Origin: Reclinomonas americana ATCC 50394
Lineage: Eukaryota
Length of the DNA stretch: 44,581 bases
Direction: 5' to 3'
NCBI GenBank assembly: GCA_048213135.1
Contig: PS015238.1
Span: forward strand, 2,072-46,652
The notes beneath the pieces are model-generated. The model saw nothing but the letters and a program-made list of their open reading frames with translations. It did not search any database and was not told where the DNA came from. The translations under genes and the position numbers were made by a program. Shown in pieces: positions 2,262 to 41,152 of the stretch. Position 1 is the first letter of the stretch, and every line of letters begins with the position of its first letter.

Positions 2262-3125
2262 GCAGTAGTACTAGTCTTGTTTTTGTTTGTCGTCGCGTCA
2301 TTGGGGGGAAAATTTAAGGAGGTGCAGTGAAGAAAAAACTACCCTCGTACACAGATAACGCAGGGAAAAGNNNNNNNNNNNNNNNNNNNNNNNNNNNNNN
2401 NNNNNNNNNNNNNNNNNNNNNNNNNNNNNNNNNNNNNNNNNNNNNNNNNNNNNNNNNNNNNNNNNNNNNNNNNNNNNNNNNNNNNNNNNNNNNNNNNNNN
2501 NNNNNNNNNNNNNNNNNNNNNNNNNNNNNNNNNNNNNNNNNNNNNNNNNNNNNNNNNNNNNNNNNNNNNNNNNNNNNNNNNNNNNNNNNNNNNNNNNNNN
2601 NNNNNNNNNNNNNNNNNNNNNNNNNNNNNNNNNNNNNNNNNNNNNNNNNNNNNNNNNNNNNNNNNNNNNNNNNNNNNNNNNNNNNNNNNNNNNNNNNNNN
2701 NNNNNNNNNNNNNNNNNNNNNNNNNNNNNNNNNNNNNNNNNNNNNNNNNNNNNNNNNNNNNNNNNNNNNNNNNNNNNNNNNNNNNNNNNNNNNNNNNNNN
2801 NNNNNNNNNNNNNNNNNNNNNNNNNNNNNNNNNNNNNNNNNNNNNNNNNNNNNNNNNNNNNNNNNNNNNNNNNNNNNNNNNNNNNNNNNNNNNNNNNNNN
2901 NNNNNNNNNNNNNNNNNNNNNNNNNNNNNNNNNNNNNNNNNNNNNNNNNNNNNNNNNNNNNNNNNNNNNNNNNNNNNNNNNNNNNNNNNNNNNNNNNNNN
3001 NNNNNNNNNNNNNNNNNNNNNNNNNNNNNNNNNNNNNNNNNNNNNNNNNNNNNNNNNNNNNNNNNNNNNNNNNNNNNNNNNNNNNNNNNNNNNNNNNNNN
3101 NNNNNNNNNNNNNNNGTGGGTGCGA

Positions 3126-4244: not shown

Positions 4245-4598
4245 CCCAATTGTTCTGCANNNNNNNNNNNNNNNNNNNNGCACTCTTTCCCTCTCTCACT
4301 CTCTCATATACACACACCTTGATGCCCATGGGAGCTCTCTGCTGCAGAACACGAGTGTCGACAATCACGCGTCCTGCACAACTCGTCACGATTGTCGGAT
4401 GAACTTCATATCAGTTTCGTTTGCAGCTTCAGCTTCGTCTGCTGAGAGGCAGAGCATGCTGACTGAGTACGGCACTCGCTCTTTCTCTCTCCACCTTGCA
4501 CGTCTTGCCTTATGTCTGACGATCAGAGTGAAGCGCGTGGAGCCCATCGAGACACGACTCTCACTTAAGCGCCATACAATAATACAACAACGCGCGCC

Positions 4599-15316: not shown

Positions 15317-15945
15317 GATGATGATGATGATAACTGATCACTTGTGTTCTCTCGCTCGCTCCCTGAGGAGGAGACAAGACGGGAAACACACACGCGCGCG
15401 CGAGAGAGAGAGGCGTGTGTGCGTGTGTGTGTGGAGGGACCTGAGGCCACTGCGCGAAACCCTGCGTGTGTCGATGCATCATGAGCGAACAAACGAAGCA
15501 CAGAATCATCGCTCAATGACACATACAGAGACAGTGAGCACACGTGTGCGTGTGTGTGTGTCTGTCTATCTCTCTGTGTCACTGCCTGTGCACACGCGCG
15601 TGTGTGCGTGGAAAGAGAGAGAGACACACACAATGGCGCACACACTTCCTCACGCACTCACCACACACAGACTCCAATGCCGCACACGCGCTCACAATGG
15701 AGAACTACACCACAGAGACACTGTGTACACAGGAGAAGAGCACACACAGAGCTCACACTGACGCACACACACACACAAGGTCGTTGCACCAACAATGAGT
15801 CACACACAAAGCGCGCGGACAATCAATCACTCACACAAGTGCGACGAGTGCGTGCTGTCTCCCTGTGCNNNNNNNNNNNNNNNNNNNNGTTACACTAGTG
15901 TGTGCTCACTTTGTGTGTGTGTGTCTGTGAGAAGACAAAAGGAGA

Positions 15946-16255
15946 ATGCCAGTGCTGAAGATCAACGGACGCTACGTGCCCATTCCTCTGCACAAGCTGC
16001 GCCTGGGCAGCCTGGCCGTGCAAGCGTTGCGTGTCATCTACACACATGCACTCACACTCTTCTGTCTCCTCTGCCTCTCTCAGTCAGTGTGTGCGCGTGC
16101 GACATGGCATCTCTCTTTGCAACTCACTCTCTCTCTCTCTCACACACACACACAGTGCGGGTTGGGGCGTTGTTGGTGGCGCCGCGCTGACGTTTGCGCT
16201 GAAGGATCAATGGGCGGGCATTTTGGGCTTGAATCAGCCGGCTGAGGAAGAGTAA
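15946..16255 (+). CDS. Small 59-aa single-TM protein, probably cytochrome bc1 subunit QCR10/UQCR11-like
   Basis: Exons 15946-16025 and 16156-16255 join in frame to give MPVLKINGRYVPIPLHKLRLGSLAVQAAGWGVVGGAALTFALKDQWAGILGLNQPAEEE*. The size and the QAAGWG-hydrophobic segment resemble plant-type QCR10 (from recall, not searched). Confidence 0.5.
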
Positions 16256-16343
16256 CAGCAGCACGCACTGCATCTTCTGTGCATCTCTCTCTGTCTCTTC
16301 TTGCTTGCTGTGTGGAGAGGTAATACAACAAAACAAACGCTCT

Positions 16344-18462
16344 TCACTCGCCTCCTCCTCCTCCTCCTGCTGCTGCGGGCTGCAGCTCGAGCAGCACGTC
16401 GAATGTGGCCTGGCGACACACATGGGAGTGCTGCTGACGCAAGTGTGCCTGTTGCGTGAGCTCAGCGTCGTGTTCCAGCAGTGCGTCCCAGAGCAGGTGG
16501 TGCGCGGCTGGCTGGGAGAAGTGATCGCGGAACCANNNNNNNNNNNNNNNNNNNNCAGGCGTTGCTGTGTGGTGGCCTCAGATTGCGCGGCCTCGCGGAG
16601 GGCTTCGCTGGCCACGCGCTCCAGCATGACGCGGAGAAGGTGTTGCTCCAGGGCTGTGTCGGCTGCACACTCGGCCGCCACGGCGTGTGCGGCGTCGTCG
16701 ACGTAGGCGTCGAGTACCTCTTCGGTGGTTTCGAGAGCGCGGCGGCCGCGGACGTGCTCGTCGGCGATCTCGGCCACGCATTCGGTCACGACGCGGCGAC
16801 ACTCGTTGCGTACGTGCGTGGCCACCACGTGCTCGCACGTCTCCGCCAAAATGAGTGCGCCCTGCATCGACACGTCGTCGTGTCGCAGTGTCACCGTGTG
16901 CGCGACTGCTTGCCGCTTCGCCGCCATGTGCGAGCGCACAATGTCTGACAGGCACTCGCGAACGACCGCCGCCGTCTGCTGTCGCACCACCTCTCCCACA
17001 ATGATGTCGGCCGTGGGTCGAACGAGCGCCAGCACTGCCTCGTCGTTGGCGGTGCTCGGTAGCGCCTGCGAACGTGGATCGGCCAGCACCGACGCCAGCA
17101 CGTCGGGCAGGAACGACTTGCGAATCAAGTGCGTAATCACCATGTCGGCCACCGCATTCGCATTCTTGTCGAGGTATCGCAGTTGGCGACGCTTCAGCGC
17201 CGACTTGCGTCCCAGGTGACCGCGGTAGGTCTTCTGAATGCGAGTGGCGGCTTGATTCCGCCGTGACATTTCTAACGCGAGGGAAAAACAAAAATGAGCA
17301 CGAGGAAACAGTCTGTGAAGCGCATGCACGAATGCACCATCAAACTTGAGATATCTCTTCTGGTCGGCCTTGGCGATTTGCGGCCGCAACGAGGCCGCCT
17401 CGCGCTTGGCCTCCTCCCGTTTCCTCTTGCTCGGCGACGACGAGCGATGTGTGCTGCGTCGCCGATCTCGATGCCGATCTCTGTCGCGATCCCTGTCCCT
17501 GTCCCTGTCCCTATCCCTTTCACGTTCCCGATCGCGGTGCTCCCGATGCCCACCATGATGTCGTCGGTGCGACTCCCTCTCCCGATGCTCACGATGCCGC
17601 CGGTGATTCGAGTGGCGCCGATGCCGCCGATCCTCCGCGTCCCGCTGCCGTCTCCGATGCTGCCGATCATCCGCTCTCCTGCGCCGCTGCTCTGCGTCCT
17701 CACAATCGGAGCACGAGCACGATCCATCATCACCATCAGACGACGACGAGTCATCCTCCGAGTGCGACAGTGGCGGTGGCGGCGTGGTCGACGACGACGA
17801 CGAATCCGACAACGACATCTCATCACTGCGCCGTCTCCTCTCCTTGCGCGCCATTGGCTTCATCGGCGGAAGCACCTCCCCTCGATTACGATAGCGATTA
17901 CGATGCCGTTGCGCGCGGACCTCACTGCAACGCACAGGTCGTGAGCATGTGGTGAGCATGCGCGCGAGACAAGACGAGCGGAACTTGACAGTCTGCGTCT
18001 CACTCGGCGCCGACAGCGCTCCCCGAGACAGCGCCGACAATGGAGTGGCCACCATACTCGGTGTCGCACCAGAGCTCTCTGGTCGTGATGGTCGCAGCGA
18101 CGAGGAAGCCACCTTTCCCACACACACACACAGTCAGAGCGATGGAAGAGAGTGTCTCTCGAGAAACAGACAGACCGAGGCAGCTTGATACGCAGAGACT
18201 TGATGCGCGCCTGAAGGCGTCACATAGTAGTACTGTGATGGATGAACCGCATTCGCCGCGGCCACAGTCACCGGGTATCTGATCACCTATGTGTGAGAAA
18301 GAGGAAGAGGAAAGAGGTGACTAAAGAGGCACTCAACAGTCCATAATAAGGCGGTGCACCCGCGGCCGCCATGTGGTGCTGAGGAGGAGCATATGGATGT
18401 GGTAATGGATGATGGTGGAGAAGAGGGGGAACAGCCGCAGCCGCCGCGGAGTACGGATACAT
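16344..18462 (-). CDS. IQ-motif protein with Ser/Asp-rich and RD/RH-repeat low-complexity region
   Basis: IQ motif AATRIQKTYRGHLGRK, an (RD)n tract near 17465-17530 and a helical C-terminal region. The start (MYPYSAAA) and the stop after a small gap are inferred. Confidence 0.6.
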
Positions 18463-18674: not shown

Positions 18675-21600
18675 ATGCACGGTGTGCGCAAGTCAGATGG
18701 AGCAGCGCGTCAAGCTGCGGCTCGCGCCAAGATTGAGAACTATTGCACCTTGTCAGCGCGCAGTCTTGAGCTTGTGCGTGACATGCTCTCTCTCTCTCTT
18801 TCACACTCTCACTCACTCTTGTCTCTGCGTGCGTGCGTGTGTGTTTGTGTGTGTAGCGCAAGGCCAATGCGCTGACTGCGGAGAGCCTGGAGGTGACTGC
18901 GCAAACGCTGCTCATCAATCCGGATTATTACACATTGTGGAACTTTAGGCGCGATGTGCTCACGCACATGATTGACAGCATGTTGCGTCTCTCTGCTCCT
19001 CTCTCAGTGTGTGTCTCTCTTTCGTGCGCATGGTTGCTCATATGTGGTGCATAAGGACTGATGAGAAGGAGGTTGTGGCGCTCAAGCAGCGCGAGTTGAG
19101 CTTCAACAAGGACGCGCTCAAGATCAATCCGAAGATCTACGCCATCTGGAATCACCGCAAGTGGGTGCGTTGCTCCACCCATTCCGCACAAGTCTCTCTC
19201 ACACACATGCACGAATGAGGAGACGAGACAAGGCGGTGGAGAAGAGCGAACACGTGGGATGTATTTCTGTAGCTGACACCACGTTGCGTGTGTGGATCAG
19301 GTGGTGGAGAAGTTCCCGGCGTGCTGGGAACACGAGCTGTTCTTGTGCGAGCAGCTGCTGTCGCTGGATGAGCGGAATTGTTGAGTGTTTGTGGGCATCG
19401 ACTTGTCTGGATGGAAGATGGATTCGTTGTTGACTGTGTACGTCGCGCCTGTCGCAGTCCACTGCTGGAACTATCGGCGATATGTGTTGTCGCTGGCGGG
19501 AGTGCCGGCTGAGAAGGAGATCTTGTTTTCCAGGAAGAAGATTGACAAGGTGGGTGTGGGTGTTCAATCGTGGCTCTGTCTGTCGTTCAGCAGTTGTGCG
19601 AGACGCATGTTTAGGCCTACTAGTTTACTGGTAGAACCCTACGTTCCGAACGTAGTGGACCGCGTTCGATTCGCGGGTGGGCCTTTCCTTTTTGTTGAGC
19701 GTGCTCACTTTTTTTTTCTATTAGCTGGCTCGTCTCTTTGAAGTCTTCCGGTTGTCTTTGCACGCGTTGTTTTCGTGTTGTGGTTAGAAGTGTATACGAT
19801 AGTAGTAGAGTTCTTCTCTTCTGCCTCTCCTTCTTCGTGCGCCCCGCCCTTGATCTCCAGCAGAGGCTGTCGTGTCCTGTCACCCCCCACCCCATTTGTA
19901 CTATTTTTGACTTTTCATCATATCGACTCTCGATTCATCGCCTCCGTTGCCTTGCGTTCAACCCTACAGCATTCGCATACACCCTATCTTACGTCTTCTG
20001 CATGTTGGGTTCAGAGGTCGTCGTATACTTGCACGCTGGGTTTTCTGCCTGCATTGCATTTCTGAAAGATTTTATTCCCATTCTCTCCCATTTCAAGAGT
20101 GCTCTTTGTCGCCGTACCATAGTGATAAGCAACACATGGCCTGCTAGTTTACTGGTAGAATCCTACGCTACGAACGTAGTGGACCGCGTTCGATTCGCGG
20201 GTGGGCCTTTCCTTTTTGTCGATTTGTCGTAACTTTTCGTTGCATGTCTCCTTTTTTTCCGCGCACACATTCTTTCGTTCCGCAACTTGATCGTGTTGCT
20301 GCAGGGGTGCTGAATGCTTCATATCTCTGTCTCCGCCTGCCTGCTCATCTCCGTTAACCTCTGCAGAAGTTGTCTTGTCCTGTAACCCTGCTCGTACTAT
20401 TTTTGATATCCTTCTTGTCGACACTTGATTTGTGGTTTCCTTTGCCTTTCGCTGGACCCGATGTTGACTGCGTGTTGGGTTCAGAGGTCAAATGCTCGCG
20501 TTCTGGCTATCGTGTGTTGCATTTTCTGTCATTGCATATTTCCACACTTTGCATCTCGCTGTCAAGAATGCTTTTGTTGCCTACCATATTGATGTACGGA
20601 AGCAACACATGGCCTGCTAGTTTACTGGTAGAATCCTACGTTCGGGACGTAGGGAACCGCGTTCGATTCGCGGGTGGGCCTTTCTTCTTTTTTTCTTTTG
20701 TGCCTCTATGTTCCTTTGTGTCGTTTACCATTTGCTCACCACTGATCTGTACTCGCTTGTTGCATGCTGCATGCAGCATCTCCGTTCCCACTCCACCCTT
20801 CGCTCTCTCCCTGCCGTTGCCTGCTGTCACTTCTTGTCGTATTGTCGTGTCCTTGCACCTCCCAACCCTACTGTCCTATTTTTGACCATTTTCAACACGT
20901 CTCGCACACTCGTTCCTCGCTCGCCATCTTCGTATCAACCCCTGGTGTCCGTGTTGTATAGATGCGCGTAGCAGTGTGCATTTGAATACTTGCTGAAGCG
21001 ACACAATGACACAGCGTGCATGACGTGTGCATTGCATTCGGTGCAGCACATTCATTTCCCTTTCATCCCTTGCCTCCCTTTGCCTCGCTATCTCAACCAC
21101 GCCCTCACGTCACCTGTTGCAAGGGTTAGGAGAAGCACTTGACATGGCCTACTAGTTTACTGGTAGAACCCTACGCTTCGAACGTAGTGGACCGCGTTCG
21201 ATTCGCGGGTGGGCCTTTCCTTTTTGTTGATTTGTGATCATTTTTCGTCGACAGTCTTCTTTTTGCCGCGCACCCATTCTTTTGCTCTGCAACTGGTTCG
21301 TGTTGCTGCATGAGTTCCAAATGCTTCGCCTCTCTCCCTGTATCTCTCTGTGCCTGCGTGCCCATCTCCGTTTACCTGTGCAGAGTGCTCGTATTATTTG
21401 ATATCCTTCCTTTCGACTCTTGATTCGTGGTTTTCATTGCCTGTCGTTGGGCCCTATGATTACGAGCTGTCTTGCATCTTCTGCGTGTTGGGATCAGAGG
21501 TCGCATGCTCACACTCTGGCTATCGTCTGTTGCCTTTCCTGGCTCCCTCAGGCATTTCTCTGTCAAAAATGCTCTTGCTGCCTTACCTTAGTGATTCACG

Positions 21601-24113
21601 GAAGCAACACATGGCCTGCTAGTTTACTGGTAGAATCCTACGTTAGGGACGTAGGGAACCGCGTTCGATTCGCGGGTGGGCCTTTCTTCTTTTTTCCTTT
21701 TGTGCCGATTTCTATTTTGCCAGCTCATCGCTGATCTGCACGCGCTTGGTGCTTGCTGCGTGCAGCATATCCTTTCCTACTCCACCCTGCCCTCTCCCTG
21801 CCGTTCCCACTCTACCCTGCCCTCTCCCTGCCGTTGCATGCTGTCGCTTCTTGTCGTATTGTCGTGTCCTTGCACCTCCCAACCCTACGATGTCCTATTT
21901 TTGACCATTTCAACACGTCTCGCACACTCGTTCCTCGCTCGCCATCTTCGTATCAACCCTTGGCGTCTCTGTTGTATGGACGCGCGTAGCAGCGCGCATT
22001 AGAGTACTTGCTGAAACGCAGCGATGGCGCAGCTTGCATGACGTCTGCCTTGCATCCGGTGCACGTGCAATTCCTTACCTTTCTCTCCCTTTGCCTCGCT
22101 GTCTCAACCACCCCCTCGTCACTTGTTGGAAGAGTTAGCAGAAGCACATGACATGGCCTGCTAGTTTACTGGTAGAATCCTACGTTCGGGACGTAGGGAA
22201 CCGCGTTCGATTCGCGGGCGGGCCCTGGAACGCTTCCACTTTTTGTGTTTCTTTTTTTTTGTTGACTCGTTTGTGCTGTCTCCTCCCCGCAGAACTTCTC
22301 CAACTACTCGGCGTGGCACCACCGCAGCAATCTGCTGACGCAAATCATGGCCAGCAAGTCGACAGAGGAGAAGCGCCGCATGATCGGAGACGAGTTCGAG
22401 CTGGTGTCGCAGGCATTTTTCACCGAGCCGGCCGATCAGAGTGCCTGGCTGTATCACCGCTGGCTTCTCGGCAAGGGTGCGTTCCACCGAGTGCTCTGTT
22501 GCTCTTGCCGCCCTCTGAGCAGTCTTCGCCCCGCCCTCATTTTGCAGTGCCCTCGGAGCTGTTTGTGGAGAACGTGGCGCCGTCTACACTGGCAGGTGCA
22601 CGGCAAGTGCTGCTGGCCTTCTCGACATTGGTACAGGTGCGGCTGTGCCCGGGAACTTGAACGCTCCTTTGAGATGCTGAATCCCACTGTAGGGAGTGTC
22701 GCCATCGACCGTGCTGCTGACGGCAGGCGGACACACTGTGGCGGTGACATGGACGCCCGTGTACGAGTCCACTCAGGCCGAGATCGACCGCAGTCCGTTC
22801 GCCAGTGTGTGGCTCGGAGATGTGAGCGAAGAGGTGCCGTTGGGCGAGAGCGGTGAACTGGCAGTGCATGGAGACGGTATTGTTTCTGTGGATGGTGTGG
22901 CACTGTCGATGGGCGGCGTGTGCCGGTGGACTGCGGAGGGCATGGTGCTCTTGCCGCTTCTCAGCAAGGACGTTGTGGATCGAGCCGAGGAGGATCAAGG
23001 TGCTGCTAATGTCTCTTGATGATGGTGGTGGTGGTGGAGCTTCACAATTGTGTCTCATCGCGAATGACATGTGTGTATGTGCAGAGTTGCGCGCCTTGTC
23101 GGTGCTGGAAAAGGATATCGAGCTGTGTCGCGAGCTGCTGAGCGAGGAGGATGGGCTGAAATGTTGAGTGAGATGCCATGGTCTTTGTCCCTCATCGCAT
23201 TCTTTGCGTGGCTACCCTTCTCAACGCCACTGTCCACGCAACGCAGGGGCATCCATCACGCTGGCATTCTCGCTGCGCGAGCGTGACTTGCAGATTGTTC
23301 GTCGTGAGCGACGCCTGAACCCTGCTCTTTCCGGTTCCGTACGCCCTCCCCCCTCAGCTTCGGTATCGGTGTCGGTTCTCGTTGACAAGTGTGCGTGCGT
23401 GCTACAGAGAGCTCGGAGGACTCGCTTGCTTCCTCGCTGGAGGCCATCGAGCTCCTCGGTGGCCTCGCAGCCTCCGACAGCATGCACACACGTTACTATG
23501 ACGATATGCGGAGCGACTACTCGCTGGAGCTGCGCACGCGCCATCCGTTCCCCAAGGACGCAGCTCCTCGCTCACATGTGCACGCCGACGACTGGACGCT
23601 GGATCTGTGTGGCCAGCATTTCACGCGTGTGCGCCACTTGAATAGGTGTGGCGTCGTGCGCCTGCAGTCTTGCATATCGCGCACGCGCAAGTGCTCACCA
23701 TTTCTACAGGATGGTGCACATTCGCCACCTGGACTTGTCTCGCAATGCGCTCGTCTCGCTGGAAGGCATTCAGTTTTTGGCGCTGCTGGAGACGCTTGTT
23801 GCCGACGACAACCAGTTGACGAATCTCGATGTGAGACTGTCGGCGCTGAAGCACTTGCGAGTGCTCTCCGTGGCCAACAATGGTGTGTGTGTGCGCGCCC
23901 ACTTGTCCTTGTCGTGTCTGTGTGTGTGCGCTTGCTTGCACTCAACCGTGGTGTGTGTGCGCGCGCCACGTAGCCATTGCGTTGTTGCCAACCAACGCCG
24001 TGAGCGATGTGGTCACGGAGGTGCGCGGTGGCAGCAATCCGGCCACCACTGCTGCTCTGCTGCGGACTGCTTTTCCGGCAGCCACGACGGTGGTGTGGGA
24101 GGTGACGGAATGA
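18675..24113 (+). CDS. RABGGTA: Rab geranylgeranyltransferase (GGTase II) alpha subunit, long form with insert domain and LRRs
   Basis: N-terminus MHGVRK. Prenyltransferase alpha repeats NPDYYTLWNFRR, NPKIYAIWNHRKW, DERNFHCWNYRR, NFSNYSAWHHR and FTEPADQSAWLYHRWLL. C-terminal LRRs (IRHLDLSRNALVSLEGIQFLALLETLVADDNQL). Confidence 0.95.
19614..19684 (+). tRNA. tRNA with Arg anticodon CCG (array copy 1)
   Basis: Cloverleaf: acceptor GGCCTAC/GTGGGCC, D-arm GTTT-ACTGGTA-GAAC, anticodon arm CTACG-TTCCGAA-CGTAG (CCG at 19646-19648), variable loop TGGA, T-arm CCGCG-TTCGATT-CGCGG, N73=T, T-run downstream. Confidence 0.88.
20138..20208 (+). tRNA. tRNA with Arg anticodon ACG (array copy 2)
   Basis: Same body. 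Loop CTACGAA (ACG at 20170-20172), variable loop TGGA, N73=T, followed by TTCCTTTTT. Confidence 0.88.
20611..20681 (+). tRNA. tRNA with Pro anticodon CGG (array copy 3)
   Basis: Same body. Loop TTCGGGA (CGG at 20643-20645), variable loop GGAA, N73=T, T-run downstream. Confidence 0.88.
21146..21216 (+). tRNA. tRNA with Arg anticodon TCG (array copy 4)
   Basis: Same body. Loop CTTCGAA (TCG at 21178-21180), variable loop TGGA, N73=T, followed by TTCCTTTTT. Confidence 0.88.
21613..21683 (+). tRNA. tRNA with Pro anticodon AGG (array copy 5)
   Basis: Same body. Loop TTAGGGA (AGG at 21645-21647), variable loop GGAA, N73=T, T-run downstream. Confidence 0.88.
22155..22225 (+). tRNA. tRNA with Pro anticodon CGG (array copy 6)
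   Basis: Same body. Loop TTCGGGA (CGG at 22187-22189), acceptor GGCCTGC/GCGGGCC, N73=C (the usual eukaryotic tRNA-Pro discriminator), T-run about 15 nt downstream. Confidence 0.9.
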
Positions 24114-24227: not shown

Positions 24228-27200
24228 TTAGCGCACAATGGAGTTGGGAATCGCCGGCTGTGTGCAGATACCGGCCGATGTCATCGCCGGGTTGCCGCGG
24301 AAGTTGCAGATGCCACTTTCGTCGGTCCGCAGGTCCTGCGCGAAGAGTAAGCCGTCAGGAATAACAACGAAGAGGGAGAGAGAGAAAAGACGCAACTGCC
24401 AGAACCACTGGAATCTTCTTGGAGCTGAGGACCTTGTCGGGCGCCGCCTCAAAGCCGGCAAACGACACGCGCTCGCCGATGCGCGATCCCTCTGGCGGAT
24501 TGATAAAGTCGACCTTGCTGTCGTCGGCACTGGCAGCGCACAGGACCATGGCCTCGCTCTTCACGTCGCGCAGCTTGGAGGGCTTCATGTTGCACACGAC
24601 AAGAATGACGCGGTCCTGCGATATGCCGGGCGACAGGTGAGGGAAACGGCACGCTGGGACACGCATCAGCCATGCACAACCAACCTGCATCCTGTCAATC
24701 GGGATGTGTTGCACGAGTCCACTGACCACCTGGCGCGGCTCCGCCTCACCCACGTCGATCCTTTCCACATACAGCCTGCCGACAACAAGAAAGATGAACA
24801 ATGACCGCGATATCGATCGTGCTTATGACAGAAACACAGAGACAACGTACCGATCGGCCGTCGGGTGACGCTCCACATGCACAATGCGACCGACGCGAAT
24901 GTCAAACGCCGAAATGTCTTCCAGATCCACCTTGGGTGGTGGAGGAGGAGCCTTCGTCTTCTCCTTCTTCTCCTTCTTCTCTGTCCGCTTGCCCGCGGCG
25001 GCCGGGGGTGCAGATTCCGCTGCCGCAGCCGCAGATTCAGAGGCAACAGATTCCGCGGCGGCTTCCGACTTCTGTGATGCCGGTGGTGGTGGTGGTGCGC
25101 CACTGCCAGACGCTCCCCCCGAGGCGTCGGCGAATTCCAGCGGCGCCTCCCCAACGCTGCGACGGTACTCGTTGTGCGCCTCCAGCTGCTTCTCCCACTG
25201 CTTCTGCAACCTCTTCTGCGCGGCCTTGGCCACCGGCTTGCCGTCCTTGTCGACGGTTGGCAGACCCCTCTCGTCCCAGGCCGAGTACTCCGCGTCCCTG
25301 AACATGTCCAGCGGCGACTTTTTCGCCGCCTCCAATTTCAACGCTGCGAACGGGCGAACGTCGGCGACAGAATGCGCCAGAGAAATCCGGCCAACAACAA
25401 CAACAACGAACCCTGCGCAGCCTCACGCTCCAACCGGCGCTTCTCCTTCTCCGCCTCACGTGCAGCCTCCGCAGCGCGCTTCTCCTCCAACTCCTGCAGC
25501 AAAACCTCCGGCTTCTCAAACTTCCATGCACTCTTGCCGTCGGGGCGGTCCTCCAGACGCACACCAAGAGGAATCAAGGTGGTGTCACGGATATCGTCAG
25601 TCATGCGCAAAATTACTTGGTAATCTGCGACGAGCGAGCAAGTGCGTGAGCGAGTGAGAGACACAAGAACAGCCATAAGTTCTCCCCCCACGCTCGTCAA
25701 TCCCAACACACCTGCTTTTTGACGAGCCGCCGTGCGCACTTGCTCGCGGAAATCGGCGAGCACGTTGAGGTACGGTGCGATGCGGTCCTCCGCCTGTCAG
25801 CAAGAGACGTTGGTCAGCGCATAGCCATCGAATAAATAAACAAGGAGGCGTCCNNNNNNNNNNNNNNNNNNNNNNNNNNNNNNNNNNNNNNNNNNNNNNN
25901 NNNNNNNNNNNNNNNNNNNNNNNNNNNNNNNNNNNNNNNNNNNNNNNNNNNNNNNNNNNNNNNNNNNNNNNNNNNNNNNNNNNNNNNNNNNNNNNNNNNN
26001 NNNNNNNNNNNNNNNNNNNNNNNNNNNNNNNNNNNNNNNNNNNNNNNNNNNNNNNNNNNNNNNNNNNNNNNNNNNNNNNNNNNNNNNNNNNNNNNNNNNN
26101 NNNNNNNNNNNNNNNNNNNNNNNNNNNNNNNNNNNNNNNNNNNNNNNNNNNNNNNNNNNNNNNNNNNNNNNNNNNNNNNNNNNNNNNNNNNNNNNNNNNN
26201 NNNNNNNNNNNNNNNNNNNNNNNNNNNNNNNNNNNNNNNNNNNNNNNNNNNNNNNNNNNNNNNNNNNNNNNNNNNNNNNNNNNNNNNNNNNNNNNNNNNN
26301 NNNNNNNNNNNNNNNNNNNNNNNNNNNNNNNNNNNNNNNNNNNNNNNNNNNNNNNNNNNNNNNNNNNNNNNNNNNNNNNNNNNNNNNNNNNNNNNNNNNN
26401 NNNNNNNNNNNNNNNNNNNNNNNNNNNNNNNNNNNNNNNNNNNNNNNNNNNNNNNNNNNNNNNNNNNNNNNNNNNNNNNNNNNNNNNNNNNNNNNNNNNN
26501 NNNNNNNNNNNNNNNNNNNNNNNNNNNNNNNNNNNNNNNNNNNNNNNNNNNNNNNNNNNNNNNNNNNNNNNNNNNNNNNNNNNNNNNNNNNNNNNNNNNN
26601 NNNNNNNNNNNNNNNNNNNNNNNNNNNNNNNNNNNNNNNNNNNNNNNNNNNNNNNNNNNNNNNNNNNNNNNNNNNNNNNNNNNNNNNNNNNNNNNNNNNN
26701 NNNNNNNNNNNNNNNNNNNNNNNNNNNNNNNNNNNNNNNNNNNNNNNNNNNNNNNNNNNNNNNNNNNNNNNNNNNNNNNNNNNNNNNNNNNNNNNNNNNN
26801 NNNNNNNNNNNNNNNNNNNNNNNNNNNNNNNNNNNNNNNNNNNNNNNTGCAGCGCCGTGCTGGGCTCCAACATGATGGATGTGCACTCGGGTGGACAAGA
26901 CCTGAAGTTCCCCCACCACGACAACGAGCTGGCACAGTCCGAGGCGTGCTTCTGCCACCACCAGTGGGTGAACTACTTTTTGCACTGCGGACATTTGGGC
27001 ATTGGTGGCCAGAAGATGTCCAAGTCGAAGAAGAATTTCACCACCATCAAGGTCTGTGTCAGCAAACACATGATTCCACCACTCGTGCGTGCGACTCACC
27101 TCCCCGCGTCCATCATGCCTGCAGGAGGCACTGCAAGTGTACACTGGTCGCGACATCCGCATGCTGTGCTTGCTGCACAAGTACAACGCACCGCTGGAGT

Positions 27201-30117
27201 ACAGTGAGAGCGCCATGGAGGAGGCTGTGACTTTCCAGCGCCAGTTCCGCGAGTTTTTCCAGAACATGAAGGTGGAGCTGCGCACGGCGTCGCCACACGC
27301 AGCCACCCGATGGGATGCACCGGAGAAGCAGCTGAAGGATGCGCTGTTGGCAGCGCAGCAGGCGGTGCGCAACGCGCTGGTGGACGACATGGACACCCCG
27401 ACTGCCATTCGTCAGCTGCAGGAGCTCATCTCGGCCACCAATCGCTACCTCATGGACGTGCGCGCCATCCCCGGCCGCGAGCCGCGCGCCATGTCGCTGC
27501 GCGACGTGGCCGCTTACATGACCGACATTTTCACGGTGTTTGGCCTGAACGAGGTCGGCGCCATTGGCTTTGCGTCGGCCGAGGAGGGTGGCGCGGTACG
27601 TCNNNNNNNNNNNNNNNNNNNNNNNNNNNNNNNNNNNNNNNNNNNNNNNNNNNNNNNNNNNNNNNNNNNNNNNNNNNNNNNNNNNNNNNNNNNNNNNNNN
27701 NNNNNNNNNNNNNNNNNNNNNNNNNNNNNNNNNNNNNNNNNNNNNNNNNNNNNNNNNNNNNNNNNNNNNNNNNNNNNNNNNNNNNNNNNNNNNNNNNNNN
27801 NNNNNNNNNNNNNNNNNNNNNNNNNNNNNNNNNNNNNNNNNNNNNNNNNNNNNNNNNNNNNNNNNNNNNNNNNNNNNNNNNNNNNNNNNNNNNNNNNNNN
27901 NNNNNNNNNNNNNNNNNNNNNNNNNNNNNNNNNNNNNNNNNNNNNNNNNNNNNNNNNNNNNNNNNNNNNNNNNNNNNNNNNNNNNNNNNNNNNNNNNNNN
28001 NNNNNNNNNNNNNNNNNNNNNNNNNNNNNNNNNNNNNNNNNNNNNNNNNNNNNNNNNNNNNNNNNNNNNNNNNNNNNNNNNNNNNNNNNNNNNNNNNNNN
28101 NNNNNNNNNNNNNNNNNNNNNNNNNNNNNNNNNNNNNNNNNNNNNNNNNNNNNNNNNNNNNNNNNNNNNNNNNNNNNNNNNNNNNNNNNNNNNNNNNNNN
28201 NNNNNNNNNNNNNNNNNNNNNNNNNNNNNNNNNNNNNNNNNNNNNNNNNNNNNNNNNNNNNNNNNNNNNNNNNNNNNNNNNNNNNNNNNNNNNNNNNNNN
28301 NNNNNNNNNNNNNNNNNNNNNNNNNNNNNNNNNNNNNNNNNNNNNNNNNNNNNNNNNNNNNNNNNNNNNNNNNNNNNNNNNNNNNNNNNNNNNNNNNNNN
28401 NNNNNNNNNNNNNNNNNNNNNNNNNNNNNNNNNNNNNNNNNNNNNNNNNNNNNNNNNNNNNNNNNNNNNNNNNNNNNNNNNNNNNNNNNNNNNNNNNNNN
28501 NNNNNNNNNNNNNNNNNNNNNNNNNNNNNNNNNNNNNNNNNNNTGTGAGAGAGAGGGAGAGCATCGATCAGTGGCCGAACAGGGGGCTTTGTTTTCCCGT
28601 CGAGCACGACGCAACGTGGCCATGGCCGAGCACTCAATGTGCCAACCGGGGCGACCGCGTCCCCACGGCGAGTCCCACGCTGGCTCGCCAATCTTTGAGG
28701 CCTTCCACAACGCAAAATCGGCCGCCGTCTTCTTCTCCGACACACCACCGCACAGCGAACCTGCCAGCGAAGAGGACGACAAAATGTCAGGAGAGAGACC
28801 ACACACCAGCGATTGACAGACTGGACGGACTGACCCTCGCCCTCAGCCATCAGCTCCAGATCATTGTGGCGCTCTGGTGCGAGCTTGGGATGCTCGTGGC
28901 CGGCGGCGAGGTAGGCAGTGGTGTCAAAGTACACCGAACCAGTGGCGCTGGCATACGCAAAGCCATTGTCCACAATCTTCTGAATAAAGGCCACCACCTC
29001 GGGCACATACTCGGTGACGCGCGGCATGGCCTGCGCTGGTCGAACCTGGAGAAAGCAGCGCGGATTGTGAGACCGAGTGCGAGGGGTGGTGACTGGCAAC
29101 TGGTGGGAACAATAAGCAACTCCCAGCGACGCCATGTCCTCGAGGAAATCACGCTCGTAGTGACGAGCGTGGCCCTCAAAGTCGGGTTCACGTGCCGCCG
29201 CCTCAGCACTAATCAGATTGGCACTCAGCGCCGCCTGTTTGATGGCTTGCGCCGCGGCATAGGTGCGCGCCACCTTGCGCGATTCCTCACCATCGGCCAG
29301 CAGCTCACGCGCCTCTGTCAGCGCCTGCTCCAGCGCCGCACTGCACATACGCACACATCAGCGAAAGAAAGAGCGACTAGGATGGGGGGAGGGAGGGAAA
29401 GTGAGGCAGAGACGCAACGATGCAGAAGCGCGTGGAGACAACTCATTCACCAAGTCCTGCAGATGCTTCTGCGAGGAGGCAATGATGATCTTGTCGTCCA
29501 CGTCGGTGATGTTCATGACAAACAGCGTCGGCAGGTGGAAGTAGTCCTCCAGCACACGACGGATAATGTCAAGCGACACGTAGTTGCTGATCCCAGAGAG
29601 CGAGAGATGAGTTCAAGTGTCTCGAGTGTGCAAGCTCTGATTCGCACGCGCGCGCGCGCGACCTCACCGTGCATGACCCAAGTGCGACACATTGTACACG
29701 GTCGGCCCGCACGAGTACCATCGCAGAGGCCCATTGCGCGGCTTGCGAAGAGGCACCTGTCGAGAGCGCAAATGTGAGCAACTGTGAGCGGAGATGGGAG
29801 GAGGTGGGAGGCAGTCACAGTCACTTGGAAATCACAAACAAAGCACACAGTGTGCCTCTCCTACGCACACACACACACACGCGCGCGCACACAGACAATG
29901 GGGCATGCGTGCGCGCGTGCTGGCGACAACTCCCACTCTCTCTGTCACACATGACTGACATGTCCCTCACTGCCACACACACTCTCTCTCTCTCCCAGCT
30001 GAGCACCTTGCTGCGCGTCAACGAGTTGTACACAAAGACTCCAGTCTCCTCGTACTCGCCACTGGCCACACTCGGCTCAATCCACTTTGGCTGATGACTT
30101 CCGCTCGCAGCCGCCAT
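24228..30117 (-). CDS. CARS1: Cytosolic-type cysteinyl-tRNA synthetase with C-terminal EMAPII/Trbp111-like tRNA-binding domain
   Basis: [94 protein letters not shown], the eukaryotic C-terminal extension ([17 protein letters not shown]), then an OB fold ([38 protein letters not shown]). Confidence 0.95.
26853..27595 (+). CDS. CARS1: Internal exons of the CysRS gene on a gap-flanked contig scaffolded in the wrong orientation
   Basis: [52 protein letters not shown] and anticodon-binding helices. Splice phases match the flanking minus-strand exons at both ends. Confidence 0.9.
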
Positions 30118-31089: not shown

Positions 31090-34000
31090 TCACAGCTCGT
31101 CGTGCTTCCTGCGCTTCTTTGTCGCTTTCTTCTGTGGCTTCTTCTTCGTGCTGCTGCTGCTGCTGTTGCTGCTGGCGGCGGTGGCCTCTTCCTCCAAAGG
31201 CGGCGGCGGCGGCTTCGTGGTGGCTGCCCCGGCCTCGTCCTTCTTGTTGGAGCTCTTCTTGGGCGTGTCGACCGCCGCTGTCGCCGGCGCTGATTTTTGA
31301 CTGACTGGTGCTGCTGCAGCGGCTGTGGTTTCGGTGGTGCCGCGCGCCTTCTCCGCCTCCTCGAATTCGCGCACCACACGATCGTACTCGCTCCATTCGG
31401 GTGCCACGCGACGCGCCACGTCCAACTTGGCCTCCTTGGTCAGCGGGTTGTTGCACTGCGAAACACAACTCGTCAGCTCCTCAACTGCCGGCATCTTCCT
31501 ATCACCGCATAGCCACACACATACACACCAGATCAATTGTCTTGGCGCGTTCCTTGGTCTCATCCGAGCACCACGTCTCACACCACAGCCACTCTTGCGG
31601 CAGAGAGAAAATGCGCACTCCGTGCTGCGCGTAGTTGGGCAGATCCTGATCCAAGTTGGAGAGGCTGTTCGGATCCTGACTGAGGCTGTCGTAGATGGCG
31701 CGATAGTGATCGCCGGCTGCCAGCTTGCGGAAGCGGTACAGGTCAATGACAAAGAGCGCACTAATGTGGTACGGCTTGCCGCGCAGATGCTTCTCCCACT
31801 GAGACAACAGCGATGAGTCACACGCACGCACACACACACGCAAGGAGATGCTCGCCACAACGCAACGTAGCCAGCCTTCCAGAAACGGAAGCCGTCCATT
31901 TCCTTGCGCGAGTCGCAGAATGGCGTGTAGCCGATGGGTGCTCCGTTGAGGTCCATGTTGTACAACTCTGACATGTCGGCGCGCACAATCTGGTGGCACA
32001 GGGGAAAAGTCAGTCGCACGCACCACACTGAACAATGCTGGCAATGCACGACAAGCCTGATCGGCGTCCACAAAGATGATCTTGCGCAGGCTCAGCGGGA
32101 AAATGACGTCCACGAACAGCACCTTGTACCTGCACGGCATGTGTGTGAGTGCCAGAGAAAGAGCCGATTAATGTCGGTGCGCAAACGCACGCCCAGATAA
32201 TGCGCTGCTTCTCGGTCTGCTTATTAAGCCAGGTCGGCCACTTGTAGGCCACCAGCTCGTACTCGAATCCGATTTGCTCCGCATATCTTGGCAGTGAGCG
32301 CTGTGTGGACACGTGTCAGAACCATGCGGCGTCACTCACTTGCCCCCCAAGAGCGTGTGGCGTACCTTGAACTGCGGGCTCAAGAACTGCTTGAGGAACC
32401 AGAACTTGAGCGGTGATTTGGTGTGCCGACGGACAGCCATGATCATGATCTTCAGTAGCCGCTCATACAAATGACCACTGGCCACACTGAAAATGTGCAC
32501 CGTGTCGCCTGCCGAGGCACCGCCGCCACCGCCGAACATACTGTGTGTGAGGTGAGTACAAAAAAAGATAGCAGTTGGCAGATGGGATGCGCGACGACAC
32601 GCACTTGCTCAAACTGTTCCACAACCCGCTGCCACTGTCCTCGCCCTCGCTGCCGTCCGCCTGCACATCCAGCACACTTTCCGCCTCTTTGCCCGCACGC
32701 TTCTGCACCCACAGGAACAATTCATCTCCCTCAAAGTTGTCCATGAGGAACGACTGGTTGTCGGCGTGACCGCCGGTGCGATTGTTGGTGCTGAGGAAGT
32801 GCAGGTTGTTGATCTCGTAGATCTCCGATGCACGGCCTTGAAATTCAAAGAGAAGAGTGTGTGCGTTCAGTACGTCAGATATATCTGTCGCCAGACAAAG
32901 AATACCACACCTTCGGCCAGTCCGAGTGTGAACAGGCCTGGTCGACCCTTCAGCTGGAAGTAGCCATAATTCGCCATCACAATGGTGTCATCCACCAACG
33001 ACCTGTCAGCACCACCACGGAGCTCCAGCTCGAGACCACGCGGTGGAGCATTCGTCTTGTCGTAGCATTGACCTAAAAAGCACAAAGGAGTAAGAGGGAA
33101 ACTGGAACTGCGATGGAAGAGGGCAAGTACCACGCACCCGTGAGCACCATGTCCTCCAGCACAAACTCGGCACTAACGACAGATCTACTCGTGCGATACG
33201 CAAAGTGAGTGAGCGCAAAGCCGCTGCAATAACAGTGGAGCGCATCGCCCACTCACCGTGGCTGCGCAGTCAGGCGGATGTTGTCGAGGTCTTCTTCCGC
33301 AAGCACCGATTCCACCAGCCACGATTCCGGCGGCAACACATTCATGGTCAATACGTAGTGCGTGGGCAGGCCGGCAAACTCCACACGCGGAGCTGACAAG
33401 ACAATTCGGCATGCCACGGATGAGCCAGCGCACGTGCGCAATACAATGTGCAACGAAAGATAAAACGCACTCGAGTTGGAGAACGGCTCGGCCGTGATGA
33501 AGCGGTAGAAGCTGCGCAATCGCGGCGGCAGCGAGAACGACTTTTGCGAAGACAGATACACAGAAACCGCTGCGCCGGCATCGTACAGAGTCTGCGTGCG
33601 ATCCACGACTGAGTGTCTCATTGCAAGATTTCATGTTGAAATGAACAGTTAGCAACCTGCAAAAAGTTGGCCGCCTTGGCTGCAAACTGGGCCAGTGGGT
33701 CCATGACCACCTCAATGCGCACAAATGGCAGTTGGCCATTCGAGTCCAGAGAAATCGAACTGTGCGGATCCGACGAAGAGTGAGGGCGACAGCAAGATAT
33801 GCACAGTGGACGAATGGATGGCAGGCACGCAACGCTCGCTTGTCCAACCCAGGTGGCAGCTCTTCATGCGAGATCTGCTGCTGGTACTGACGGTGCACCA
33901 AGAACGACGACACGCCGAGCACAATCGACGATTGTTCCCTGCACATATCACTCTTCAGACGCGGAACTCTCATCCCCCCTCTTAATTCTCGTGCACGCAA

Positions 34001-38441: not shown

Positions 38442-41152
38442 TCATTCACTGCTTTCGAGAAGCCAAAGGCCCAGCGACTGCATGGTCTGACGTTTCGGTG
38501 GCAGTGTGCCGGCAACGTGAACGATGGCCGGCGAACCTGCATCCCACATGCCTCGGTCGACGACGTCTGGGGTCTTCCAGCTGAGCGTCTCGAAGCCCAT
38601 GGTGACACCGGCCTGCGACACGTCGAGCCAGTCGAAGACAAGGCGGTCGAGACGCACGTGGTATTCGACCAGCAGATTGAGTATGAGCTGCTCGGCGTGC
38701 GTCGACCAGTGCATGTCCAGCAGGCCGAGGAGGTGCGTCAGAAGCCGCAAGGAGTACGCAGTTGGTCGAATGGTGAAGACACCGGCGTTCAACGCGAAGA
38801 AGCGCTGGTTTTCGGCACACGTGCGTGTGACCTGCATCGCGCGCCATGATGGGCGTATGCAGGGTAGAGTGGCAACGGAAGAGATCACACGCACCCACGG
38901 GTCGCTGTGAAGGCTGTTGAGCGGTGCATACGCCCAGGGTGCACGTCGGCGTTGATGCGACGGGGTGTGGAGGAGGGCGGTGAAATCGATCCGATAGTTA
39001 TGCAAGTCGGCCAGCACCAGCAGGTCGGGTGCGGTCACGTTGTCAGCGTCGGCGAGCTGCGGCATGTGTGCCAAGTGACTGACAAACACGGCGTCGACGT
39101 CGGCGTAGAATGGTCGGTAGCCGCAGCGAATCATGAGGTAGGCGTAGAGCCAGCGCGTGTTGACCACGTTGGGAAAACGGAGCGGTACGTCGCCGCGGCC
39201 ACCAACACCGCCGGACCTGCAATGCACGGATCTCAGCCGACAGCTAAAACAACGACATGACAGTCTCTTCTTCCTCTTCTTTGCACGCGGACAAACCATC
39301 CGTAGTCGTCGAGATATGCAGCCGCCTCCCGGTCGGGGCCAAGGATGCTCTTGACGATACGCAGTGTGACTTCGTCTTCGCACACCACCAGCGGCAGCAC
39401 AGCGTCGCCGTGGAACTTCCAAAAGTGGAGCAGCCAGTTGCGCAGCATGAGAGCCCAGTCGCCACCATTGTCATCGTCGTCCGACAACTTGACCGCAGTG
39501 AACACGACAACCGTGTCGCCGCCACCGTCGGGACGAGCCGACAGTGAGAAGGGGTGTGCGGCAAGATGCTGTGCCAGGCGGCGCAGCTTGGACCGGTCTT
39601 CCCGCAGCACTGACCCCTCCACGAACAACGACGAGGGTGCAGGCGCCTGCACATTGCCGACAGCCACCTCGGCCTCCAGCAGCGCCCTCCGCTGCGTGAG
39701 CACTCGCCACAAGTGCTCCTCCAGTCCGCGGCACAACGCGTCCGGATAGAATCCTACGCGGAAGCCAGCAGCCTCATACTCTGGCGTCAAGAGCAGCTGG
39801 CGGTGCGGTTCCTCCAGATCAGGGAGTGGAGGTGCCAGAAGCCACTTGCTGCGCTCCACAAACACGCGCCCATGGAACGGACAGTCTGCGACCGCAGCGG
39901 AAAAGGAAGTCACGAACTTTCCGACTGCAAAGCACATTGGAATAACAGACCAGCGGTGCCCCTGAGCAGGCAGACGAGATCGACACCTGCGGCTGAACTC
40001 TGCAGCGACTTGATTGTGAGCTCCCTCCCGTATCGCCACTCGGCAAACACCGGCCGCGGAAGGTCACTGGTTTCTGGATCATCGACAGGCAGTGGAAGGA
40101 TTGGAGCGCTCGCGTCCACCAGCTCCGGTGGCGGTGGTGGTGGTGACTGGTACCAGAGTGATGGTCGCTGCACGAAAACAACACTTGAGACGGAACGCTT
40201 CGTTCTTCCTCTCAGACCCCAGTTCACGCAACCACTGGCATGAGCACGCGAAAGTCGCAGACAAACTTTCTCAACGCCACCACATCGGGATCGGCGCTCA
40301 CAAGGCTCGTCCACGCGGCCTGCATGGCGGCCGGAAGCGACGACACTGGCAAGCCCCGACGATGGATGAAATCGAGCACTGCACGAAAGACAACAGGTGA
40401 GGCATGCAGCACAAACGCTGCAAGCTCCGCATCCAGCAGTGCGTACCCCCTTCGCGCACAGTCTTCACACTCTCGAGCAACACCTCGAACTGCTGCCCGC
40501 CCACAGTCAGCATAACACCGCGAATGTCGCCGGGAATGGCATCACGCGGTGCGTCCGACAGCAGCTCCCTCTCGTTCTCCCCCGCATACATGAACCCGCA
40601 GCCAATGGCCACTGCTCGCTTCCGCTATCATCGTCGTCAGCAGAGCACGGAGTGAGCACGAGGAACTCGCAGTACAAGAGGACGGACCATCGCATGCGCG
40701 CACACATCCTGCAGCAGTTGCGTCCGCACGGGTGAGTCGGCGAGCCACGGCGTGCTGGATCCGTGTGCACGATGCAGAAAGTCGTCCACTGCCACCAACA
40801 CCAATCATCATCCTCATCATCATGTGATCACATGCACGCAATGCACTCTCCTCCGACCTGCTTCACCAAGTGTCGAGTGACCAGTGAGTTGCAGACTACT
40901 GACACTACCGGAGGCGGTTAACGACAAGGCGGCGGAAGACAGGCTGGCCACACGCCAGTGCATGCTGCTACTGCCGTCGTTGCTGTCGGCTCGAGGCAGC
41001 ACAGTCACCTGGTGAATGCCGGCTTGCAAGAACGGCTGCACGGGTACGCTGCTCATCAGCGACACCGGTGGCAACGTGCAGAGTGTGCAGTGCGCCAGGC
41101 ATAGCACAAGCAACAGTGACGGCAGCAGCACAGAGGCTGCTTGTCGCCCCAT
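38442..41152 (-). CDS. Secretory-pathway nucleotide-diphospho-sugar transferase (GT77-like), paralog A
   Basis: Signal peptide MGRQAASVLLPSLLLVLCL, MLRNWLLHF, GYRPFYADVDAVF (DxD), LNAGVFTIRPT, EQLILN, IVHVAG, and K...MQSLGLW. Confidence 0.75.

Follow-up and report, generated by a model that had tools for sequence, protein, structure and literature searches.

A Tandem Array of Six tRNA Genes with Arginine- and Proline-Type Anticodons on One Shared Body in an Intron of Reclinomonas americana

Introduction

How a tRNA can change its identity without poisoning translation is a long-standing question, for which the nuclear examples are mostly single, recent, and maybe dead genes. A locus in Reclinomonas americana ATCC 50394 raises this question in a different form. 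The DNA analyzed here (assembly GCA_048213135.1, contig PS015238.1, positions 2,072 to 46,652 of the forward strand) is 44,581 bases long; we refer to this whole stretch as the window and count all positions from its first base. An intron of a gene similar to that of the Rab geranylgeranyltransferase alpha subunit (RabGGTA) holds six tRNA genes with nearly identical bodies, three of which carry Arg-type and three Pro-type anticodons. Do these genes serve two amino acids from one body, or are they the idle products of local duplication?

On balance, we lean towards reading the six copies as working, correctly charged RNA polymerase III (Pol III) tRNA genes that arose through an alloacceptor anticodon shift; their transcription, processing, modification, and correct charging are what we infer from the pattern of change in the sequence, while the sequence itself shows how the array is built, how it was duplicated, that its changes are non-random, and that CGN and CCN codons have their standard meaning. 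The locus represents a compact natural experiment with one body, two identities, synthetases of different classes, and four fixed differences. If the genes are expressed, the minimal switch (position 35 plus positions 37, 44, and 46) would be directly testable; if they are silent, the locus would be an ordinary tandem tRNA pseudogene cluster.

Six tRNA Genes with One Body

A search of the window with ARAGORN revealed six tRNAs, all on the + strand and all within the array, with none elsewhere. Their anticodons, in array order from t1 to t6, are CCG, ACG, CGG, TCG, AGG, and CGG; t1, t2, and t4 are the Arg-type copies, while t3, t5, and t6 are the Pro-type copies. Each of the six matched the Rfam tRNA model RF00005 at full length (model positions 1–71) with a score of 43.1 to 54.9 bits, the gathering score being 29 bits; t3 and t5 were scored in narrower scans. 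The genes are as follows.

19614..19684, + strand: t1, Arg-type, anticodon CCG; A6-U67, G10-C25, U32, A37, U44, G46, U73 (ARAGORN, alignment, Rfam 52.9 bits).
20138..20208, + strand: t2, Arg-type, anticodon ACG, mosaic (ARAGORN, alignment, Rfam 47.1 bits).
20611..20681, + strand: t3, Pro-type, anticodon CGG; G35, G37, G44, A46 (ARAGORN, alignment, Rfam 44.3 bits).
21146..21216, + strand: t4, Arg-type, anticodon TCG (ARAGORN, alignment, Rfam 54.9 bits).
21613..21683, + strand: t5, Pro-type, anticodon AGG; differs from t3 at position 34 only (ARAGORN, alignment, Rfam 43.1 bits).
22155..22225, + strand: t6, Pro-type, anticodon CGG; the sole copy with G6-C67 and C73 (ARAGORN, alignment, Rfam 45.6 bits).

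The bounds of the first tRNA are 19613-19685 according to ARAGORN and 19614-19684 according to Rfam. A whole-window Rfam gathering scan with default filters listed two of the six tRNAs, a consequence of speed-filter loss, and other RNA families may be missed likewise.

Alignment of the six 71-nt genes, read with a per-column script in standard numbering, disclosed variation only at positions 6, 25, 32, 34, 35, 37, 44, 46, 67, and 73, with 1 to 10 differences between any two bodies. The initial annotation had described six 71-nt cloverleafs at 19614-22225 that vary at these ten positions, a description that ARAGORN, RF00005, the alignment, and the script match exactly. It was also correct on the anticodons and the Arg and Pro sets that they form (ARAGORN and the script), as well as on the presence of U20 in place of A20 (the script).

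The stems of 7, 4, 5, and 5 bp comprise 21 pairs, and all 126 cells across the six copies (126/126) hold standard pairs; when the 3' partner columns were slid by one to three positions as a control, only 36–55% were paired. The residues U8, A14, G18-G19, U33, G53-T54-T55-C56, A58, and C61, in the numbering of the alignment, are all present. A putative A box, TAGTTTACTGG, and the putative core of a B box, GTTCGATTC, can be seen in the alignment by comparison with the consensus boxes. A run of five to seven T residues starts 5–15 nt 3' of every copy, in three different flank contexts; such a run occurs in 5.3% of 20-nt spacer windows, and inside the genes no T run exceeds three. A 25-base core pattern with up to three mismatches matched the window six times and none of 100 shuffled versions. 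Neither this pattern nor an nhmmer profile built from the six genes detected further or decayed tRNA copies or fragments in the 44.6-kb window.

Pattern of Change

The spacers between the genes diverge by 9–50%, and conservation of the tRNA bodies is much stronger. The youngest pair, t3 and t5, shows one difference in 71 positions compared with 63 mismatches in 441 aligned spacer columns (Fisher p = 4.6e-4). Between Arg-type and Pro-type units, 5–8 differences in 71 positions stand against a spacer mismatch of approximately 50% (p ~1e-11 to 1e-13). Use of the lower pairwise spacer rates gave binomial p values of 7e-3 to 2.5e-4 for the comparison of body with spacer.

The location of the changes is equally uneven. 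At least five of at least 11 inferred changes fall within the seven anticodon-loop positions (p = 2.6e-3). The wobble base differs in both pairs created by a 1-kb duplication (ACG/TCG and CGG/AGG) and is the sole difference between t3 and t5. All three stem changes preserve pairing, with A-U passing through G-U to G-C and G-C changing to G-U. Clustering in the anticodon loop, together with stem changes that keep the pairs, would be harder to explain without selection.

Spacers and Duplication History

Two classes of spacer separate the genes.

19685..20137, + strand: spacer s1, class A, 453 nt; starts TTCCTTTTTG, with a T5 run at +5 (spacer alignments).
20209..20610, + strand: spacer s2, class A, 402 nt; 85% identical to s4 over aligned bases (spacer alignment).
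20682..21145, + strand: spacer s3, class B, 464 nt; starts TTCTTCTTTTTTT, with a T7 run at +7; 91% identical to s5 (spacer alignment).
21217..21612, + strand: spacer s4, class A, 396 nt (spacer alignment).
21684..22154, + strand: spacer s5, class B, 471 nt (spacer alignment).

Class A spacers (s1, s2, s4) lie 3' of Arg-type genes and are 81–85% identical to each other, while the class B spacers (s3, s5) lie 3' of the Pro-type genes t3 and t5 and share 91% identity. A 30-nt tandem duplication in s5 (21774-21835, 2.1 copies, 93% matches) partly explains why s5 is longer than s3.

No global alignment of class A with class B is possible. A central block of approximately 100 nt is common to both classes at approximately 77% identity (z 13–15, with 0 of 200 shuffles as high), as are approximately 17 nt just 5' of the genes and a T-rich stretch just 3' of them. 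The block conserved in both classes (TGTCGTGTCCT ... CCTATTTTTGA ...) was located at 19868-19941, 20843-20920, and 21860-21938; an Rfam scan of the intron found no family other than tRNA in the spacers, this block included, at E <= 1. The central block and the common flanks identify the Arg and Pro units as ancient duplicates of a single unit made up of a tRNA and a spacer.

The layout of the array, t1-A-t2-A-t3-B-t4-A-t5-B-t6, contains a higher-order repeat of approximately 1 kb (Arg-A-Pro-B), in which t2-s2-t3-s3 matches t4-s4-t5-s5. This Arg-A-Pro-B pair was duplicated later than the split between Arg and Pro units. Two copies depart from a simple repeat. The t2 gene resembles the Pro-type copies at G6 and U25 and the Arg-type copies at C32, C35, A37, U44, and G46, and class A spacers flank it at either end. 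Such a mosaic is the expected product of exchange between positions 25 and 32, through either unequal crossing-over or a short tract of conversion. The t6 gene is fully Pro-type, although an Arg-type gene would be expected after a class B spacer; it has a class B spacer on its 5' side and unique intron sequence on its 3' side, with a T5 run at +15. The t2 mosaic and the placement of t6 show that the copies exchange sequence.

An origin of the array through tandem duplication in place and an anticodon shift is thus well supported. The initial annotation had proposed a single tRNA family that diversified by duplication and crossed the Arg/Pro boundary by anticodon switching, and the homologous spacers, the ~1-kb repeat, and the mosaic copy bear out this part. 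It underweighted a short-lived, probably non-functional outcome (PMC4981973), and nuclear anticodon shifts as such had already been described (PMC3923123).

Identity Positions and Anticodon Sets

Four positions split the two types without exception.

Position 35: C in the Arg-type copies (t1, t2, t4), G in the Pro-type copies (t3, t5, t6).
Position 37: A in the Arg-type copies (t1, t2, t4), G in the Pro-type copies (t3, t5, t6).
Position 44: U in the Arg-type copies (t1, t2, t4), G in the Pro-type copies (t3, t5, t6).
Position 46: G in the Arg-type copies (t1, t2, t4), A in the Pro-type copies (t3, t5, t6).

The NCG and NGG anticodons are separated by the single change at position 35. Within each type, the wobble position 34 is the main site of difference between copies. 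At position 34, the array has A, C, and U only and never G. Inosine at position 34 reads U, C, and A, while C34 reads G; by these wobble rules, ACG with CCG (and TCG) on the one hand and AGG with CGG on the other would each suffice for a whole four-codon box.

A review of tRNA identity (PMC9976931) lists A20, C35, U/G36, and A/G73 for arginine, with A20 and A/G73 as the main determinants in E. coli, plants, and mammals. In yeast, C35 with G36 or U36 is dominant and position 20 is marginal, while m1G37 acts as an antideterminant against the arginyl-tRNA synthetase (ArgRS) (PMC9976931). Proline identity involves G35, G36, and G37, and eukaryal tRNA-Pro carries G1-C72 and C73 (PMC9976931). All three Arg-type copies have C35 and G36. 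Likewise, G35, G36, G37, and G1-C72 are present in all three Pro-type copies, and C73 in one of them (t6).

The pairing of G37 with Pro and A37 with Arg is as the rules for keeping the two synthetases apart would predict. The co-change at position 37 fits discrimination between ArgRS and the prolyl-tRNA synthetase (ProRS), since m1G37 blocks yeast ArgRS (PMC9976931). The shared body, with G1-C72, U20, and a pyrimidine at position 73 (C in t6, U in the others), fits the proline rules (G1-C72, pyrimidine 73, G37) better than the arginine rules, so that a shift from Pro to Arg would be the likelier direction. Here, the origin of the body, whether Pro, Arg, or a third isotype, is argued from the one identity review (PMC9976931).

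A Proposed History of the Array

These features are best explained by repeated tandem duplication, in place, of one unit consisting of a tRNA and a spacer of approximately 450 bp inside an otherwise short intron. In one early duplicate, a change of the middle anticodon base (G35/C35) would have moved the gene between the NGG (Pro) and NCG (Arg) families. Because both ArgRS and ProRS read mainly the anticodon, this switch would also have changed the synthetase that charges the tRNA. Co-changes at position 37 (G in Pro, A in Arg) and at positions 44 and 46 may have adapted the two branches to their new tasks. The ACG/CCG/TCG and AGG/CGG sets would have arisen when position 34 changed after further duplications and unequal crossovers, and editing of A34 to inosine would allow each set to read its full four-codon box.

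Codon Meaning in the Window

To read codon meaning, 240 homologues from searches with exons of the RabGGTA-like gene and of a UDP-glucose:glycoprotein glucosyltransferase (UGGT) gene were compared with the window by tblastn, using columns in which 20 or more homologues aligned and the consensus reached at least 60%; these codon-column alignments are uncurated, and some read-through is possible. The 42 CGN codons fall in Arg columns in 26 cases, in Lys columns in seven, and in Pro columns in none. CCN codons (n = 44) fall in Pro columns in 35 cases and in Arg columns in none. Where the consensus for Pro is at least 80%, all 33 columns use CCN (17 CCG, 11 CCA, 4 CCC, 1 CCT), and 20 of the 33 columns with at least 80% Arg use CGN. 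CGN and CCN are read in the standard way, with no sign of a swapped code. The commonest Pro codon is CCG, and CGG is the duplicated anticodon.

Weighing the Explanations

Several observations weigh against regarding all six copies as working and correctly charged. The Arg-type copies are without two of the four general Arg determinants, as all three carry U20 and U73 where A20 and A/G73 would be expected. These two bases would count against efficient arginylation if the ArgRS of this organism resembles the plant, mammal, or E. coli enzymes, while they would not exclude it, because arginine identity in yeast depends chiefly on the anticodon and only marginally on position 20 (PMC9976931). Among the Pro-type copies, t3 and t5 have U73 rather than the eukaryal C73. 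By the numbering of the alignment, positions 15 and 48 are C and A, compared with the usual purine-15 and pyrimidine-48. The D stem is weak, with two A-U pairs and one G.U pair in t1 and t4 and two G.U pairs in the other four copies. Minimum-free-energy folds miss this stem and reach z-scores of only -1.7 to -2.7; they recover the acceptor, anticodon, and T arms in most copies, and folding is not used as support here. Conserved Pro columns often have CCA (11 of 33), yet the UGG anticodon is absent from the array, so that the Pro set probably extends beyond the array and a UGG gene is to be expected elsewhere in the genome. Conservation of the bodies alone could be explained by gene conversion among copies instead of purifying selection. 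Finally, nuclear alloacceptor remoldings have been found to concentrate on the outermost branches of the tree; most of them are probably pseudogenes, and only one deep case was seen (Velandia-Huerto et al. 2016, PMC4981973).

Some of these points feed a different account, which we consider possible although clearly less probable than the reading favored above: the array could be a young local cluster in which some or all copies are unused in translation, either as silent or weak pseudogenes kept alike by conversion or in a role outside decoding, for example to mark a chromatin boundary or to supply small RNAs. The anticodon differences would then be mutations that were tolerated. Nuclear alloacceptor remoldings that are mostly recent and probably non-functional, with a secondary function proposed for the single deep case, would be in agreement with such a cluster (PMC4981973), as would the exchange between copies seen in the t2 mosaic and in the Pro-type t6 after a class B spacer, and the lack of A20 and of a purine at position 73 in the Arg-type copies. 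Set against it are the concentration of changes in the anticodon loop (p = 2.6e-3), the preserved pairing in three of three stem changes with 126 of 126 pairs intact, and the terminators kept 3' of all six copies in three flank contexts. The anticodons are exactly the A/C/U-34 sets of eukaryotes, G34 being absent; the Pro-type copies have G37 and the Arg-type copies A37, in line with the identity rules (PMC9976931); and no decayed copy was detected in the 44.6-kb window.

If the genes are expressed, charging could still be ambiguous in one of the two branches; the copies with Arg anticodons on their Pro-like body would be the likeliest to be wholly or partly mischarged or poorly charged. We regard this as unlikely, and equally unlikely the outcomes that it would bring, namely Arg/Pro mistranslation at a low level or a regulated pool of tRNA with non-canonical charging. 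The bodies are identical save for four fixed positions, the Arg-type copies are without A20 and A/G73, and an "ambiguous intermediate" view of identity shifts has been discussed (PMC3923123), all of which would suit such a state. In contrast, the differing base 35 is read by both ArgRS (C35) and ProRS (G35, G36), and the co-change at position 37 fits discrimination, with m1G37 blocking yeast ArgRS (PMC9976931). None of the 42 CGN codons stands at a Pro column and none of the 44 CCN codons at an Arg column, a test that is blind to low-level misreading. A tRNA head followed by approximately 450 bp of repeated sequence might also bring to mind a tRNA-derived short interspersed element (SINE) or another mobile repeat, and assembly gaps (N runs) elsewhere in the window an artefact of a collapsed or expanded repeat; we find both very improbable. 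A T5–7 terminator directly follows each tRNA, so that transcription by Pol III would not continue into the spacer. The copies stand head to tail, the window holds neither dispersed nor truncated ones, and no N run interrupts 19550-22292. In addition, spacers that differ by 9–50% would make the units distinct enough to assemble.

Beyond the favored reading of working, correctly charged genes lies a stronger claim, which we consider possible but less likely than not: the six copies could be working, possibly sole, decoders of CGN and/or CCN, with one isoacceptor family taken over by a remolded tRNA of another amino acid. If this takeover is true, four nucleotides (35, 37, 44, and 46) would suffice to move a body between class I ArgRS and class II ProRS, and the locus would be a persistent functional nuclear identity switch whose duplication history is still readable. 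Should ordinary Arg and Pro tRNAs be missing from the genome, an entire isoacceptor family would prove replaceable by remolding.

Host Gene and Intron

The array sits in sense orientation in an intron of the RabGGTA-like gene (PPTA repeats, PF01239). By tblastn, RabGGTA homologues are colinear with 19316-19573 and then with 22290-22472, on either side of the array.

19316..19549, + strand: upstream RabGGTA-like coding exon, PPTA repeat (tblastn of P0128, P0124, P0132, and P0146; translation).
19550..22292, + strand: array-holding intron, 2743 nt, phase 0, GT..AG (sequence, reading frames, colinear homologue alignment).
22293..22469, + strand: downstream RabGGTA-like coding exon, NFSNYSAWHHRSNLL...WLLGK (PF01239 homologues, tblastn).

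In translation, the upstream exon ends with ...KKIDK at a codon boundary. The colinear homologues and the phase-0 GT..AG intron confirm the intronic placement in the RABGGTA gene that had been annotated initially. Protein searches with the RabGGTA exon gave a best identity of 68%, with matches among dinoflagellate, chytrid, and green-algal entries. Apart from the array, the intron consists of just 64 nt on the 5' side and 67 nt on the 3' side, and a sequence check found no N runs inside 19550-22292. Neighboring introns of the host gene measure approximately 110 nt or less, as implied by the gaps between tblastn segments, so that the array has inflated what was an ordinary short intron. The organism, a eukaryote, has short introns and a GC content of approximately 56–60%.

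Other Features of the Window

Seven N runs are present in the window (1805-1824, 2371-3115, 4260-4279, 15869-15888, 16536-16555, 25854-26847, and 27603-28543), four of exactly 20 bases and three of 745–994 bases; apparent low-GC stretches and long open reading frames (ORFs) in all frames at these sites are due to them. Three protein-coding features on the - strand were also recorded.

31090-32073, - strand: UGGT exon (Pfam Glyco_transf_24, E 6.6e-27); the best named matches are distant animal UGGTs with 64–69% identity over approximately 16% of the query.
16124-18127, - strand: ORF of 667 aa; its Pfam matches are weak and fall below the cutoff (SAC3 helical domain, 23.9 bits; IQ motif, 17.5 bits), and a search among proteins of 366–1168 aa yielded no homologue at E <= 1e-5.
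38442-39422, - strand: ORF of 326 aa; its match to a nucleotide-diphospho-sugar transferase (PF03407) is weak, at 20.5 bits, and falls short of the cutoff of 22.

Comparison with Known Systems

Searches for relatives of the tRNA body with the 25-base core pattern, leaving the anticodon loop free, gave no matches in metagenome contigs or in prokaryote genome contigs, and a looser pattern of D arm and T loop gave none in prokaryote genome contigs or in viral contigs. Two metagenome contigs that matched the looser pattern (L001 1-75, - strand; L002 5879-5954, - strand) were considered as relatives and rejected, as both hold an unrelated tRNA-Ile(TAT) with the same 17-nt D-arm string and T-loop core and otherwise different stems; the likeness is due to chance or convergence. 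The exact D-arm and T-arm strings were not found in literature text. Among the papers listed in the literature search, which dealt with mitochondrial genomes or unrelated subjects, we likewise found no report of a nuclear array in which Arg and Pro tRNAs share a body, although the tables or supplements of PMC3923123 and PMC4981973 may hold an Arg/Pro pair.

With tRNA-derived SINEs, the array has in common a repeated tRNA-like sequence with internal A and B boxes. It differs from them in its complete cloverleafs with their own terminators, which stand in tandem at a single locus, and in the absence of dispersed or decayed copies from the window. The repeated genes of eukaryotic tandem tRNA arrays are not known to vary in identity, unlike those of the array described here, in which one body carries five anticodons for two amino acids. 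In the nev-tRNAs of nematodes, a long variable arm reportedly dictates Leu charging regardless of the anticodon; the array copies, in contrast, have a 4-nt variable loop, and the synthetases relevant to them read the anticodon itself. What nev-tRNAs and the array share is a nuclear mismatch in amino acid between body and anticodon (Hamashima et al. 2012, cited in PMC3923123). Tandem tRNA clusters of plants resemble the array in that units of tRNA plus spacer are amplified head to tail by unequal crossing-over (PMC12652284).

Duplication followed by anticodon mutation is also known from mitochondrial tRNA remolding (PMC4783518) and from an experiment in which an E. coli tRNA-Arg was recruited to tRNA-Thr (Saks et al. 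1998). As in the array, the resulting tRNA is nearer to another identity than to its own isoacceptors (PMC3923123). Those cases are organellar or bacterial and the ancestral gene is usually lost, whereas the array is nuclear, intronic, and multi-copy.

The closest parallels are the anticodon shifts already described for eukaryotic nuclear tRNAs, which number 75, with 31 alloacceptor shifts among them (Rogers and Griffiths-Jones 2014, PMC3923123). In that study, position 35 is the commonest site of alloacceptor shifts, 17 of 30 such shifts in eukaryotes lead from one synthetase class to the other, the top co-changing sites are position 37 and the variable loop, and 39 of 44 isoacceptor shifts lie at position 34. 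The array follows all of these regularities, with its shift at position 35, its crossing from class I (Arg) to class II (Pro) or the reverse, its co-changes at position 37 and in the variable loop, and its isoacceptor changes at the wobble base. The published nuclear alloacceptor shifts are single genes, found by interspecies synteny, mostly recent and often judged non-functional (PMC3923123, PMC4981973). In the array, unlike those shifts, both identities stand side by side in one tandem array, the split between them appears older than a spacer divergence of approximately 50%, and each branch has diversified at the wobble base into what would be a set for a whole codon box.

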